From: a virus
Lineage: Duplodnaviria; Heunggongvirae; Uroviricota; Caudoviricetes
IMG/VR virus record: IMGVR_UViG_2698536576_000003
Location: 1 to 13,179 of that record
Length of the DNA stretch: 13,179 nt
Direction: 5' to 3' (one strand)
Shown: one piece after another, positions 2,952-13,179 of the stretch
How the letters are laid out: each line of letters opens with the position of its first letter
Position numbering within the stretch: the stretch's first letter is position 1
Notes under the pieces: model-generated
Seen by the model: the letters and a program-made list of their open reading frames with translations, nothing else
Databases searched by the model: none
What the model was told of the DNA's origin: nothing
Made by a program: the position numbers and the translations under genes

Positions 2952-4049
2952 TTAGAACTGGTAAACCAGACCTACAGCAACGATGTCATCAGTGCTTACA
3001 CCGAGTGCTTTAGTGAAGTCATTTTTGTCAAGCAGGTTGATTTTGTAATCAACGAAAGTAGACATATTTTTGTTGAAGTAATAGGTTGCACCTACATCAA
3101 CATATTTGACTAAGTCCTGATCGCCCCATACTCCAAGATCCTTACCTTTAGATTGCAGGTAAGCAACGGACGGACGCAGACCGAAATCGAACTGATATTG
3201 TGCAACAGCTTCGAAGTTTTGAGCTTTATTAGCAACGAAGTGATCAGCAAATACAGTCATATTCTGGGTTTCAGAATAGGTAGTGGCCAGGTAAATGTTG
3301 TTAGCGTCATATTTCAGACCTGCGGCCCAAACTTCTGCATTTTTACCGGAAGCAAATACTTCAGGAAGAACTTTCCCTGCATTAACTTGAGTGTCGGTAC
3401 GATCAGATTTCGCATAAGTTGCACCGATACCGAATCCTTCGTATTCATAGGTAGCAGAGAAACCGAAGCCATCACCGTTACCTTCGGTGTAGTTATCGAA
3501 ATCGCTACGATCGTTTTTGCCTTGGTACTGAGCAGCAAAGTTCAGACCATCAACCAGACCAAAGAAGTCGTTGTTACGATAGGTTGCAACACCAGTGGTG
3601 CGACCAGTCATGAACACATCTGTTTGGGTCCAGGTATCGCCACCGAATTCTGGCAGAACGTCAGTCCACGCACCGATGTCGTATGCTACACCGTAGTTAC
3701 GGCCGTAATCGATTGAGCCGTAGTCACCGAATTTCAGGCCTGCAAATGCAAGACGGGTTTTGTCTTTGGAGGAACCTTGAGATTCAGCGCGGTTGCCTTT
3801 GAATTCATATTCCCACTGACCGAAACCAGTCAGCTGATCGTTGATTTGGGTTTCGCCTTTGAAGCCCAGACGAACATAAGTAGTATCACCATCATCTGCA
3901 TCGTTAGAGGAAAAGTAGTGCTTGGCATTAACTTTCCCGTACAGATCCAGCTTGTTACTGTCTTTATTATAAATTTCAGCTGCCTGAGCAGACATCGCCA
4001 TCAGTACTGATGCAGCTACAGCAGAAATTGCCACTGTTAATTTTTTCAT
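2952..4049 (-). CDS. nmpC: outer membrane porin NmpC (OmpD/OmpC family), 365 aa, apparently intact
   Basis: Full-length ORF: ATG at 4049-4047, TAA at 2954-2952. Signal peptide [23 protein letters not shown], beta-barrel porin composition, C-terminal ...GLVYQF. Sits between Q and the holin, opposite to the late operon (moron). Confidence 0.9.

Positions 4050-8593: not shown

Positions 8594-8619
<26 letters not shown>
8074..8619 (+). CDS. nohD: terminase small subunit Nu1, 181 aa
   Basis: MEVNKKQLAEIFGASIRTIQNWQEQGMPVLRGGGKGNEVLYDSAAVIKWY... is essentially lambda gpNu1 (winged-helix N-terminus); 26-nt overlap with the A start, as in lambda. Confidence 0.93.
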
Positions 8620-11078
<2,459 letters not shown>

Positions 11079-11178
11079 AAACAGCCTATGACAATGCCGA
11101 GAAACGTCTGCAGAAAGATCAGAACGGTGCGGATATCCCTGGCAAAGACACCTTTACGAAAAATATTGGTGCCTGGCC

Positions 11179-11706
11179 GGAACTAATGAATTTATTGGTG
11201 AAGGTGATGCATATATTCCGCCTCATACAGGTCTGCCAGCAAACAGTACCGATATTGCACCACCAGATATTCCTGCTGGCTTTGTGGCTGTTTTCAACAG
11301 TGATGAGGCATCGTGGCATCTCGTTGAAGATCATCGGGGTAAAACGGTTTATGACGTGGCTTCCGGCGACGCGTTATTTATTTCTGAACTCGGCTCATTA
11401 CCGGAAAATGTCACCTGGTTATCCCCGGAAGGGGAGTTTCAGAAGTGGAACGGCACAGCTTGGGTGAAGGATACGGAAGCAGAAAAACTGTTCCGGATCC
11501 GTGAGGCGGAAGAAACAAAAAACAGCCTGATGCAGGTAGCCAGTGAGCATATAGCGCCGCTTCAGGATGCTGTGGATCTGGAGATCGCAACGGAGGAAGA
11601 AACCTTGTTGCTGGAAGCCTGGAAAAAGTATCGGGTGTTGCTGAACCGTGTTGATACATCAACTGCACCTGATATTGAGTGGCCTACGAACCCTGTCAGG
11701 GAGTAA
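11179..11706 (+). pseudogene. tfaD: tail fibre assembly protein Tfa remnant (lacks first ~16 codons and start codon)
   Basis: Frame reads [60 protein letters not shown]...[22 protein letters not shown], matching lambda Tfa from about residue 17 to the C-terminus. Upstream in this frame there is no ATG; the first in-frame start is GTG at 11284 (ORF track, 140 aa). Confidence 0.75.
11543..11660 (+). repeat. direct repeat copy 1: tfa 3'-end segment (~118 bp)
   Basis: AGTGAGCATATAGCGCCGCTTCAGGATGCTGTGGATCTGGAGATCGCAACGGAGGAAGAAACC... aligns by eye at roughly 80-85% identity with 12591-12710, same orientation. Confidence 0.75.
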
Positions 11707-11760
11707 TCATTGGGATTATGCCGCAGCACGTCTTAAGCAAGAACGTGCTGCGGTTGGATG

Positions 11761-12429
11761 CTATTTTTTCCCTGAAGCGGAAAACATTACTACAGTACCT
11801 TGAACCTTGGTTTTAACATTCTCGAAATGCTCTGAGAGTATATGTGTTAAGCCTTCTTCGGAATCTTTTGTGTTTGAAAAGATGCCTTTCTGATTGTAAA
11901 TGCGCATCAGTTTTTGACCGAAGCTATTGTGCACAACTCCATCGCCAAGAATTGTGGCTCCGTATAGAGTTCCATCGTCAGTTAAGGCCTGCGCCGCATT
12001 GCGTATTACACAGCTTTTTGTAGATATATTTCCAGGCAGGCAGTGAAGAAGGTAAAACATGGAAATGGAATCAAATTGACCATGTAACGCCGCGGGATAA
12101 GGTTCAAAAACATCATGGCTAATTTTATGTTTAATTTTTGATTCCCCAGCCCTTGTAGATGCCGCGTTCAGGCTAGCTTCGTTCAAATCCATTAAAGATA
12201 TCAGACTACTCTCAGGTACGTGAGTAAGGTAAAACCCAGTTCCAACACCAATATCCAGATGGTTGTTACCTAAATGTTCCAGAAAGTGTGGAAGAAGGTG
12301 TTCCTTTGTAGGACATCCCCATGCAAGCCGATTTGATACTCCCAAAACCCACCAGTCATAAAGCTTTAGGGTAAGTGGTGTGTAAATTTTAGCCCCATCA
12401 TCTGTGTTTTTTTTCATTAATTTCACCAT
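11761..12429 (-). CDS. ybcY: class I SAM-dependent methyltransferase (YbcY-like), 218-222 aa
   Basis: Minus-strand ORF with SAM-binding motif I HLDIGVGTGFY. The first ATG (12429) lacks an RBS; the ATG at 12417 (MKKNTDDG...) has GGTGAAA 5 nt upstream, so the true start is probably 12417. Antisense to the flanking tfa-derived sequences. Confidence 0.8.
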   Translation of the reverse strand: MVKLMKKNTDDGAKIYTPLTLKLYDWWVLGVSNRLAWGCPTKEHLLPHFLEHLGNNHLDIGVGTGFYLTHVPESSLISLMDLNEASLNAASTRAGESKIKHKISHDVFEPYPAALHGQFDSISMFYLLHCLPGNISTKSCVIRNAAQALTDDGTLYGATILGDGVVHNSFGQKLMRIYNQKGIFSNTKDSEEGLTHILSEHFENVKTKVQGTVVMFSASGKK

Positions 12430-12485
12430 GTTATAGTTTTATTTGTGAATTAAATCAATTATGGCGATGAATTACAAGGGGTTAA

Positions 12486-12791
12486 ATGCTGCCGCAGCAT
12501 AGCGATATTGAAATAGCCTGGTATGCTTCGATACAACAGGAGCCGAATGGCTGGAAGACCGTCACCACACAGTTCTACATCCAGGAATTCAGTGAGTATA
12601 TTGCGCCACTGCAGGATGCTGTAGATCTGGAAATCGCAACGGAGGAAGAAAGATCGTTGCTGGAGGCATGGAATAAATATCGGGTATTGTTGAATCGAGT
12701 TGATACATCAGTAGCTCTGGGTATGAAGCTGTTTGTAACTCATGTTACAGTAACAGTTATTACTATCTCGAAGGTGCAAAATGTATATTGA
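12486..12791 (+). CDS. tfaX: TfaX-like protein containing a tail-fibre-assembly C-terminal segment, 101 aa
   Basis: ATG at 12486 with AAGGGG RBS; the middle of the protein ([37 protein letters not shown]) duplicates the Tfa C-terminus; the N- and C-terminal parts are unrelated. Likely a chimeric remnant, possibly expressed. Confidence 0.55.
12591..12710 (+). repeat. direct repeat copy 2: tfa 3'-end segment (~120 bp)
   Basis: AGTGAGTATATTGCGCCACTGCAGGATGCTGTAGATCTGGAAATCGCAACGGAGGAAGAAAGA... pairs with 11543-11660. Confidence 0.75.
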
Positions 12792-12881
12792 TTTGATATT
12801 TTATAAATTTACTTCGAATCTGGCACGTCAACTTTTGATTAAAGTAATATCAGTTTTCGGCGAAAAAAGGACCGTGTACAT

Positions 12882-13179
12882 GGTGATGCTGCCAACTTAC
12901 TGATTTAGTGTATGATGGTGTTTTTGAGGTGCTCCAGTGGCTTCTGTTTCTATCAGCTGTCCCTCCTGTTCAGCTACTGACGGGGTGGTGCGTAACGGCA
13001 AAAGCACCGCCGGACATCAGCGCTATCTCTGCTCTCACTGCCGTAAAACATGGCAACTGCAGTTCACTTACACCGCTTCTCAACCCGGTACGCACCAGAA
13101 AATCATTGATATGGCCATGAATGGCGTTGGATGCCGGGCAACCGCCCGCATTATGGGCGTTGGCCTCAACACGATTTTA
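12882..13179 (+). mobile_element. IS1 insertion sequence, left end (continues beyond the window)
   Basis: Starts with the IS1 terminal inverted repeat GGTGATGCTGCCAACTTACTGATTTAGTGTATGATGGTG at 12882 and matches IS1 through to the window end. Confidence 0.92.
12937..13179 (+). CDS. insA: IS1 InsA (transposition repressor), N-terminal 81 codons, truncated by the window edge
   Basis: GTG at 12937 gives (M)[80 protein letters not shown]. Absent from the ORF track because there is no stop inside the window; the track's 12908..13120 ORF is a different, spurious frame. Confidence 0.88.

Follow-up and report, generated by a model that had tools for sequence, protein, structure and literature searches.

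The window analyzed here, a stretch of 13,179 nt of phage DNA, contains a segment that has been catalogued before, the tfaD-ybcY-tfaX segment of the DLP12-type lambdoid prophages of E. coli. We read the locus as the right-hand cargo region of such a prophage, in which ybcY would be a moron encoding a methyltransferase of the small-molecule or lipid type, tfaX would be a recombination scar, and the 3′ part of tfa would serve as a patch for exchange. We put the probability of this reading as a whole at roughly 70%. The initial annotation had described an antisense methyltransferase gene between two direct copies of a tfa segment, each of about 120 bp and 80–85% identical to the other. That arrangement is real, the copies being 132 nt long and 84% identical. 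The features on which the argument draws are as follows (positions in the window).

11027-11173, plus strand: internal remnant of stf, fused upstream to a truncated portal gene.
11173-11706, plus strand: tfaD-type tail fiber assembly gene of 177 codons (Caudo_TAP, PHROG 105).
11530-11661, plus strand: repeat copy 1, which codes for the conserved C-terminal (oligomerisation) domain of Tfa and is also matched by Rfam IS009.
11720-11769, plus strand: GC-rich hairpin (arms 11720-11731 and 11743-11753) and T-run (11762-11769).
11761-12429, minus strand: ybcY, intact, encoding a predicted class I SAM-dependent methyltransferase; ORF of 222 codons.
12407-12414, minus strand: A8 homopolymer, directly after the ATG at 12417.
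12430-12458, minus strand: predicted sigma-70 promoter of ybcY (TTGATT-17-TATAAC), whose −10 element abuts the first ATG.
12486-12578, plus strand: codons 1-31 of the tfaX ORF, which represent the start of a small PHROG 3893-type phage gene transcribed divergently from ybcY.
12579-12710, plus strand: repeat copy 2, an internal fragment of tfa (about codons 132-175).
12711-12791, plus strand: end of the tfaX ORF that does not derive from Tfa, a sequence seen only with right-hand cargo of the alpha/beta-hydrolase-ompT type.
12882-13179, plus strand: left end of IS1, with the inverted repeat GGTGATGCTGCCAACTTACTGAT followed by insA.

Positions 11000-12882 match at 100% RefSeq loci annotated as portal′, tail′, tfa, methyltransferase and tfa′. 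DLP12 in K-12 is annotated aaaD-tfaD-ybcY(pseudo)-tfaX-appY-ompT, and the gene order and the repeat of its tfaD (b0561), ybcY (b0562, a pseudogene) and tfaX (b0563) are those of the window, with a nucleotide identity of 96.5% over 11268-12715. Unlike K-12, the window carries an intact ybcY, with eight A residues where K-12 has six, and a tfaX without the TGA at codon 62. The right third of its tfaX is also of another type than in K-12, being linked in relatives to alpha/beta-hydrolase-ompT and not to appY; an IS1 follows tfaX, at 12882; and upstream the window retains the large terminase subunit gene, a head-tail joining gene and a portion of the portal gene. The stf remnant, which is labelled "phage tail protein, missing N- and C-terminus" in a RefSeq locus of 100% identity (L001), shows 93–97% identity to part of the full-length stf of two related loci (L003 and L006), and its fusion to the portal gene is a deletion joint of a defective prophage. 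At the other edge, 12 genomes are identical to the window up to IS1, and homology ends at 12882. The IS1 piece matches the IS1 of a related locus (L002) at 99.3%, and the insertion severs downstream cargo that related strains have.

The tfaD gene gives a full-length match to the Pfam profile Caudo_TAP (PF02413; 154 bits, profile positions 1-130 of 131). It is short by about 17 N-terminal codons compared with the 194-codon genes of intact relatives, and the full-length 585-nt tfa of L003 and L006 is 99% identical to it from 11173 onward. Repeat copy 1 is part of this near-complete member of the Tfa family (PF02413; lambda Tfa, Mu Tfa, P2 gpG, P1 gpU), and the conserved C-terminal helical domain of the family is encoded by both repeat copies. 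The C-terminal domain of Tfa has been described as conserved and its N-terminal domain as variable (PMC9608196). Downstream of tfaD, the hairpin (−30.7 kcal/mol, z = −4.8) and the T-run, which overlaps the ybcY stop codon, are a probable terminator of the tail-fiber operon. The hairpin was not called in a consensus terminator scan; it has an 11-nt loop, and the T-run lies 8 nt off the stem. In Citrobacter-type comparisons the hairpin moves with the tfa side (homology limit 11749), and in Turner and EC0880B it moves with ybcY (homology limit 11721).

The repeat search found a single direct-repeat family, at 11530-11661 and 12579-12710, with the copies 1049 nt apart. BLAST comparison of the region with itself (E = 1.6e-36) bore out the repeat, with an identity not below the original estimate. 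The edges are sharp, since an ungapped scan showed identity dropping to 20–50% outside 11530-11662 and 12579-12711; the limits first assigned, 11543-11660 and 12591-12710, were slightly too narrow on the left and otherwise correct. Each copy is in frame with its own ORF and matches the C-terminal part of Caudo_TAP. Because 14 of the 21 differences among the 132 positions fall at third codon positions, with a dS of 0.61 and a dN/dS of 0.145, we take the repeats to be two tfa alleles that diverged while coding. Among 50,697 phage records, no full-length tfa comes closer to the fragment in tfaX than 87% identity.

Judged from the comparison of its parts, tfaX is a decaying chimera, in which the 5′ end of the small gene is joined to a 3′ fragment of tfa. 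Residues 1-31 have 76% amino acid identity to a 79-aa ORF upstream of the Citrobacter methyltransferase gene; 79 aa is the length of the PHROG 3893-type gene when complete, and complete homologues occur in 47 phage records. The joint between small gene and tfa lies within a patch of microhomology at about 12581-12592. The Tfa part covers only positions 75-121 of the 131 in the Caudo_TAP profile, which falls short of the two-domain makeup of Tfa: the fiber-binding N-terminal domain is absent and, in the lineage of the window, so are the last 14 codons. Residues 78-101 are unrelated to Tfa, the true 3′ end of tfa being kept in the K-12 type. The ORF is interrupted by a TGA at codon 62 in K-12, Kati and PhiR68_2, by an extra TAG in Kati and by a 7-bp deletion in 2G7b. 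The comparison shows a joint formed by microhomology-mediated illegitimate recombination with the truncated small gene upstream of ybcY. Copy 1 is the 3′ end of the resident tfa, and copy 2 is a defunct internal piece of another tfa allele.

Between the window-type and K-12-type tfaX there are no differences in 86 positions up to 12664 and 24 in the 69 positions beyond, and the part of tfaX to the right of this crossover, at about 12665, goes with the type of downstream cargo. In ev243 and 2G7b, homology begins at 11587, inside the patch, beside another type of tail protein, and a full tfa is lacking. Three independent breakpoints in a handful of compared loci thus suggest that the tfa 3′ segment is a recurrent recombination joint. 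The segment of about 130 nt that encodes the C-terminal domain would be common to many lambdoid and P2/Mu/P1-type phages and, therefore, could offer a repeated patch of homology for crossovers between phages. Crossovers within it may swap tail-fiber modules to the left and cargo (appY, or alpha/beta-hydrolase-ompT) to the right, so that tfaX would be both a scar of such exchanges and a continuing substrate for them. To look for repeat-mediated excision of ybcY, we searched 5426 genomes with a synthetic tfaD::tfaX junction that carried the window-type right flank, and none gave a contiguous match; a genome's own two copies, therefore, exchange rarely or under counterselection.

One could envision other histories for the two copies. 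If a mobile cassette had inserted into one tfa gene, the repeats would be its target-site duplication, and the antisense, AT-rich ybcY bracketed by direct repeats is consistent with such an event. However, repeats that are 132 nt long and 16% diverged and whose substitutions (dS 0.61) follow the pattern of coding sequence argue against it, as does the finding that the tfa 3′ end holding the left copy is complete, stop codon and hairpin included, whereas the right copy lacks both ends of tfa. Moreover, the unit is not bordered by inverted repeats, genes for a transposase or an integrase are missing from the module, and the unit defined by the Citrobacter comparison abuts neither repeat exactly. 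We consider this origin highly improbable, and the length, divergence and coding pattern of the repeats, with the lack of inverted repeats, led us to reject a transposon-like cassette. We give equally little credence to the proposal that tfaX is the second assembly gene of a former invertible host-range segment (Gin/Cin/Pin type) with ybcY inside the switch, for which one could cite the DNA invertase gene located between tfa and ybcY in Turner and EC0880B and just beyond the small gene in HK225. In the G segment of Mu and the C segment of P1, the two assembly genes are oppositely oriented and remain so after inversion. We rejected a remnant of this kind because the copies here are direct; in addition, the window contains no invertase gene and no second stf fragment, and tfaX holds only an internal 132-nt piece of tfa.

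It is also conceivable that tfaX or the repeat is functional, either as a mini-Tfa consisting of the oligomerisation domain or as the IS009 sRNA, expressed divergently from ybcY. The ORF is open for 101 codons in the window, PHROG 2341 is an 88-aa family of such ORFs, and a constitutive promoter is listed for tfaX of K-12 (PMC3946193); in Rfam, the 3′ segment of tfa figures as an RNA family, RF02111 (IS009), which matches both copies. Yet the ORF carries three independent disruptions (TGA, TAG and the 7-bp deletion) in otherwise functional phages and K-12, and the deletion takes out part of the Rfam hairpin. The match at 11465-11663, comprising copy 1 and 65 nt upstream, scores 221.6 bits and covers the full 199-nt model, whereas copy 2 scores 107.4 bits, below the gathering score of 117. 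Both matches fall within reading frames whose substitutions follow a coding pattern, and IS009 matches inside tfa genes on the coding strand have been set aside as such (PMC5331693). RF02111 appears to describe the conserved 3′ coding region of tfa and not an independent RNA gene, and we regard a function for tfaX or for IS009 at this locus as quite unlikely.

The gene between the two copies is a discrete unit. A prophage remnant of Citrobacter freundii shares only 11749-12572, at 91.6% identity, and we set the limits of the cargo at these positions because nothing beyond them is shared. The tail and terminase genes have a GC content of 0.51-0.58, and 11700-12600 has one of 0.38-0.45. In HK225, this slot is occupied by dinI, in the order tfa-dinI(antisense)-small gene-invertase-attP-int, and in Turner and EC0880B by pin-ydfK-ynaM together with ybcY. 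Lambdoid morons (lom, bor, and dinI in HK225) are autonomous, differently composed genes located between conserved phage genes. Base composition and presence or absence between otherwise adjacent genes are as in morons, and promoter hexamers are present. Like them, ybcY has low G+C, antisense orientation and a predicted promoter of its own, and lies between the tail-fiber operon and attP/int in a slot of variable content; it differs from these morons in its methyltransferase product and in a probable terminator that is non-canonical and shared with the convergent tfa. We propose that ybcY is a self-contained, AT-rich moron with its own sigma-70 promoter, placed antisense just downstream of the stf-tfa operon.

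Of 5426 complete E. coli genomes, 3798 (70%) contain at least 80% of the length of the module, and 1582 lack it. It also occurs in 14 phage records, including ev243, 2G7b, PhiR26_1 and Turner, and plaque-forming lambdoid phages are among the carriers. The left or right partner of ybcY differs or is missing in the phages Turner and ev243 and in the strains EC0880B, EC16 and E2348/69, which argues against bracketing as a fixed property of the cassette. The earlier idea of a cargo gene placed between two tfa genes, thus, stands insofar as the unit is discrete, AT-rich and flanked by tfa-derived sequence, but neither a simple insertion with duplication nor a fixed bracketing survives the comparison.

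Most homologues of ybcY, and PHROG 2132, start at the second ATG (12417), which gives a protein of 218 aa, and positions 1-218 of the PHROG 2132 profile align to YbcY residues 5-222; the true start is likely at this ATG. The ORF is full length, as first described, with the motif HLDIGVGTGFY: its 222 aa agree in length with 35 homologues, all invariant columns are retained, and the gene is intact. The dN/dS of 0.20 against the Citrobacter copy indicates that the gene is held under purifying selection. Comparison with a strain in which the gene is disrupted, a check proposed at the outset, led to K-12, where pairwise alignment with NC_000913 shows A6, a 2-bp deletion in the A8 tract; on this alignment, the resulting frameshift is the source of the pseudogene status of ybcY in K-12. 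The A8 tract is present in the window and in all eight non-K-12 loci inspected (L001-L003, L005-L007, and L016 and L018 from Citrobacter). With regard to phase variation at the tract, exact 80-nt alleles number 1316 of the window type and 379 of the K-12 type, counts that cannot separate indels from SNPs.

The hexamers upstream of ybcY are the same in K-12, where genomic SELEX identified them as a constitutive RpoD promoter and where an H-NS site lies in the ybcY/tfaX spacer (PMC3946193). With the −10 element directly against the first ATG, a transcript would have almost no leader ahead of the ATG at 12417. The mentions of ybcY that we found in the literature assign no function to it; Hha toxicity was unaltered in a ybcY mutant (PMC2408971).

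YbcY scores above the Pfam gathering thresholds of Methyltransf_12, _23, _25 and _11. In motif I (LDIGVGTG, residues 58-65), D59, G61, G63 and G65 are invariant in 36 sequences, as is D81 (in MDLN), which ends a predicted strand (76-81) at the position of the acidic residue that binds the SAM ribose. The AF2 model (pLDDT 90) has the seven-stranded alpha/beta fold, and the 218-222 aa are fully used by the core fold and an N-terminal helical lid. By its motifs, family scores and modeled fold, YbcY is assigned to the class I (Rossmann-fold) SAM-dependent methyltransferases. Both in fold and in profile searches, it matched methyltransferases that act on small molecules or lipids. The top Foldseek match is PmtA, a bacterial phosphatidylethanolamine N-methyltransferase (8ys9; E = 8e-12, TM 0.61, 15% identity), which was absent from a profile search of PDB sequences at E ≤ 0.01. 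PmtA, juvenile hormone acid methyltransferase (7ec0), UbiG (4kdc) and MM_2633 (3dtn) share the fold and the SAM-binding motifs of YbcY and are similar in size (about 200-260 aa). The structural matches as a group are generic (TM about 0.55-0.66, 11–21% identity) and do not separate small-molecule, lipid and protein-side-chain types. YbcY passed none of the family-specific models (NCBIfam RquA and CpaM gave about 17 bits versus cut-offs of 175-180), and the family invariants YDWWV, HDV, LLHCLPG and YNxKGIFxN were matched to no characterised enzyme in these searches.

Orphan DNA methyltransferases are often carried by phages, and ybcY lies beside stf and tfa. One could, therefore, suppose that YbcY acts as a nucleic-acid methyltransferase in the protection of DNA, be it of the phage or of the host, or that it modifies the tail fiber or a surface receptor, which would explain its position near host-range genes. 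The evidence, however, makes a role in self-protection or surface modification, as first raised, or in nucleic-acid methylation or tail-fiber modification, very doubtful. DNA-methyltransferase motif IV ((D/N/S)PP(Y/F/W/H), or PCQ with ENV) was absent by regular-expression search in 36 of 36 family members, the position in YbcY reading DSISMFY; no separate target-recognition domain is present in the model, whose core fold fills the 218 aa, or among the 36 homologues. The best structure and profile matches are to the small-molecule and lipid enzymes, and the sole PADLOC match is insignificant (E = 0.003). In Salmonella, Enterobacter and Yersinia, the homologues at 56–65% identity stand alone on the chromosome, away from phage genes and without neighbours in common, and in ev243 and 2G7b, ybcY is retained together with another type of tail protein and in the absence of Tfa. 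We favor a soluble, cytoplasmic class I enzyme of the small-molecule or lipid type, which most likely methylates a metabolite, a xenobiotic or a lipid head group in the lysogen and most likely is silenced by H-NS under laboratory conditions; DNA and the tail fiber would not be its targets.

A bolder proposal, which we hold to be very unlikely, is that YbcY is an enzyme of lysogenic conversion, PmtA-like or acting on a xenobiotic, that changes the envelope, adsorption or toxin tolerance and whose cassette is passed on via the tfa patches. If this were true, YbcY would alter either the head group of a membrane lipid or some small molecule, and the two tfa-derived patches would make ybcY a cassette circulating among lambdoid phages by homologous recombination; the enzyme would have escaped notice because the K-12 allele is frameshifted and the gene is silenced by H-NS.

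On the reading that we prefer, with ybcY as a moron and tfaX as a scar, the locus is a textbook case of lambdoid mosaicism, and the value of the analysis lies mainly in tidy annotation. Calls of "tail fiber assembly protein" of the tfaX type and IS009 matches at this position would be recombination scars and not genes. The gains for ybcY are a likely start at the second ATG (218 aa) and a K-12 defect traced to the 2-bp loss in the A8 tract. That gene is intact in the window and under purifying selection, and it is carried by roughly 70% of complete E. coli genomes as well as by active phages.

A repeat search of the window returned a single direct-repeat family of 132 nt, whose two copies are 84% identical (BLAST E = 1.6e-36) and lie on either side of an antisense methyltransferase gene:

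11173-11706 (+), tfaD, tail fibre assembly gene
11530-11661, copy 1 of the repeat, in tfaD
11761-12429 (-), ybcY, methyltransferase gene
12486 onward (+), the tfaX ORF
12579-12710, copy 2 of the repeat, in tfaX

The initial annotation had proposed a direct repeat of the tfa 3' end of ~120 bp; the repeat is real, its left edge lies 12-13 nt further out than estimated, and its identity lies within the estimated range of ~80-85%. In an ungapped scan, the similarity begins and ends abruptly at these limits. Each copy is in frame with its own ORF and corresponds to the C-terminal part of Pfam Caudo_TAP, a profile that tfaD covers over positions 1-130 of 131 and tfaX over 75-121 only. The copies differ at 21 positions, 14 of which are third codon positions, with dS 0.61, dN 0.088 and dN/dS 0.145. 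The third-position excess and this ratio indicate that the copies diverged while both were coding, and on this pattern they are different tfa alleles. One could envision that the repeats are a duplication made by the insertion of the cargo, but such coding-type divergence rules this out. The tfaX fragment is about equally far from the nearest full-length tfa among 50,697 phage records (only 87% identical), lambda tfa (85%) and the adjoining tfaD (84%). Rfam RF02111 (IS009) matches 11465-11663 (+) with 221.6 bits and 12509-12712 (+) with 107.4 bits (gathering score, 117); because the substitutions between the copies are of the coding type, this family seems to model the conserved tfa coding end and not an independent RNA.

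The cargo is delimited by a Citrobacter freundii prophage remnant with a 90% identical methyltransferase, in which nucleotide homology is confined to window positions 11749-12572 (91.6%). The common unit is the methyltransferase gene and 143 nt upstream. The earlier proposal of a cargo gene inserted into or recombined between two tfa genes holds in outline, but the mechanism was not an insertion with duplication. The upstream part of the shared unit contains codons 1-31 of the tfaX ORF, which in Citrobacter open a complete 79-aa ORF of PHROG 3893; complete homologues of this small gene occur in 47 phage records. Given this PHROG 3893 start, tfaX is a chimera of a small-gene 5' end, an internal tfa fragment and an unrelated tail. 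The joint lies within a short likeness between the small gene and tfa (TCCAGGAAnTnAG and CAGGnAnnCAGTGAG). Codon 62 of tfaX is TGA in K-12 and in phages Kati and PhiR68_2, Kati has an additional TAG at codon 33, and phage 2G7b carries a 7-bp deletion; tfaX is evidently not kept up as a gene. The small PHROG 3893 gene is itself a widespread, uncharacterised phage gene, usually found beside dinI and before attP (phage HK225, 3191-5045 of the compared locus); one Citrobacter locus (L016, 4831-5996) has the whole gene, oriented divergently to the methyltransferase gene.

Comparison of loci argues that phages have been joined repeatedly within the conserved 3' part of tfa. The window and K-12 types of tfaX show no differences over the 86 positions 12579-12664 and then differ at 24 of 69, and the right-hand part tracks the type of downstream cargo: the window type leads to alpha/beta-hydrolase-ompT cargo (L001-L003, ev243 and PhiR26_1) and the K-12 type to appY cargo (K-12, Kati and PhiR68_2). 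Phages ev243 and 2G7b lack a full tfa and carry another tail protein; their homology to the window starts at 11587, inside the tfa patch, so that ybcY lies there between two dead tfa fragments. In phage Turner and strain EC0880B, tfa and ybcY are separated by genes that include a Pin-type invertase, and homology restarts at 11721. A locus elsewhere in the chromosome of strain EC16 reads tfa'-ybcY-dinI'-tfa', and the order in E2348/69 is int'-tfa'-ybcY-ompT. According to a paper citing the Mu Tfa structure, Tfa proteins have a conserved C-terminal domain and a variable N-terminal fibre-binding domain (PMC9608196). The segment codes for the conserved domain, which explains its homology among otherwise different phages. 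Of 5426 complete E. coli genomes, 4918 matched a joined query (11330-11600 plus 12650-12882) that includes the segment, at 12,445 places in all; with this window-type right flank, the product of a crossover between the locus's own two copies was found in none of the 5426. We propose that phages recombine with each other at the conserved patch, and that one illegitimate joint adds to this recombination.

The ORF map and a megablast search of the 5426 genomes identify the window as part of a defective lambdoid prophage of the DLP12 type; eleven of the twelve best matches to 10700-12882 are 100% identical. In one of these matching genomes (E. coli locus L001), the RefSeq order is essD, rrrD, rzpD, bor, ybcV, ybcW, ylcI, nohD, large terminase, head-tail joining protein, truncated portal, truncated tail protein, tail fiber assembly protein, class I SAM-dependent methyltransferase and 5'-truncated tail fiber assembly protein. 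The K-12 MG1655 counterparts (aaaD, tfaD, the pseudogene ybcY, tfaX, appY and ompT) all lie within the annotated "cryptic prophage DLP12". The finding thus concerns the named genes tfaD-ybcY-tfaX, a locus already annotated and very common, so that little of it is new. Over 8594-11173 the window has a less decayed DLP12 copy than K-12, which is without most of the equivalent (aaaD is a pseudogene); the window still encodes the 641-aa large terminase subunit, the head-tail joining gene and portal codons 1-105, after which a deletion fuses portal' to stf' and a 5'-truncated tfa. The porin gene nmpC (2952-4049, -) is an unbroken 365-codon ORF, and the K-12 copy is split by IS5. An IS1 left end (12882-13179) breaks the cargo region 171 nt past the tfa-derived segment; IS1 at this position was found in none of the 5426 genomes, and all twelve best matches end at 12882.

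In several respects ybcY resembles a moron. G+C content is 0.38-0.45 across 11700-12600 versus 0.51-0.58 upstream. The 824-nt module occurs in 3798 of the 5426 genomes, in up to four copies each, and at full coverage in 14 phage records; ybcY and its Citrobacter copy show a dN/dS of 0.20. HK225 reads tfa, dinI (antisense), small gene, invertase, attP and int, which suggests that the antisense slot after tfa is a general cargo position. Promoter hexamers TTGATT-17-TATAAC (12458-12430, minus strand) are listed as a constitutive RpoD promoter of ybcY by K-12 genomic SELEX, which also placed an H-NS site within the ybcY/tfaX spacer (PMC3946193). Between the convergent tfaD and ybcY lie a strong hairpin (11720-11753, z = -4.8) and, after it, a T-run; this is no canonical terminator, and a consensus terminator scan made no call there. 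Rfam CssrB, a Shigella sRNA, weakly matches 11690-11752 (+), spanning the tfaD 3' end and the hairpin (32.6 bits, below the gathering score of 76). The 45-aa "hypothetical protein" WP_001309429.1 of L001 (11679-11816, +), which crosses the hairpin and overlaps the ybcY 3' end on the opposite strand, is probably spurious.

Comparison with K-12, the disrupted strain, showed that ybcY is broken there by the loss of 2 bp from the A8 run after ATG 12417 (window 12407-12414, minus strand; 10805-10806 of the K-12 locus). Apart from this, the two sequences are mismatched at only 4 positions in 714 nt, and the remaining frame is open; the tract is A8 in the window and all other loci inspected. Of about 3790 records, 1316 had the exact 80-nt window allele; the exact 78-nt K-12 allele was found in 379, and such counts mix indels with SNPs. 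Since homologues are mostly 218 aa, PHROG 2132 begins at ybcY residue 5 and the first ATG directly adjoins the -10 element, ATG 12417 is the likely start.

The methyltransferase is full length, as the initial annotation held, and intact: the ORF passes four Pfam methyltransferase models and retains all invariant columns of a 36-member alignment, among them those of motif I (LDIGVGTG), of the acidic D81 and of the other motifs. The family, PHROG 2132, is listed as "unknown function". The matches are to small-molecule and lipid enzymes: juvenile hormone acid methyltransferase (JHAMT) and UbiG in a profile search of PDB sequences and, by Foldseek with a confident AF2 model (pLDDT 90), bacterial phosphatidylethanolamine N-methyltransferase followed by JHAMT and phosphoethanolamine methyltransferases, all at a TM of only ~0.6. 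PADLOC and NCBIfam searches gave nothing above threshold. Homologues of 68-90% identity lie in prophage cargo regions beside dinI, sodC or perC, and those of 56-65% identity stand alone in the chromosomes of Salmonella, Enterobacter and Yersinia, without phage or shared neighbours. In Citrobacter braakii (L021-L023), a 68% homologue downstream of torS is accompanied by sodC, a transthyretin-like gene, dinI and a sopA-type effector gene, in what looks like a prophage-remnant cargo island. The suggested roles in self-protection, surface modification or on a nucleic-acid target gained no support, given the phage-free neighbourhoods of the 56-65% homologues, the lack of a DNA-methyltransferase motif IV and the lack of room for a target-recognition domain; the product also showed no membrane segment, and nothing tied it to tail fibres. 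From its sequence and modelled fold, we infer that the ybcY product would be a soluble small-molecule or lipid methyltransferase serving the lysogen.
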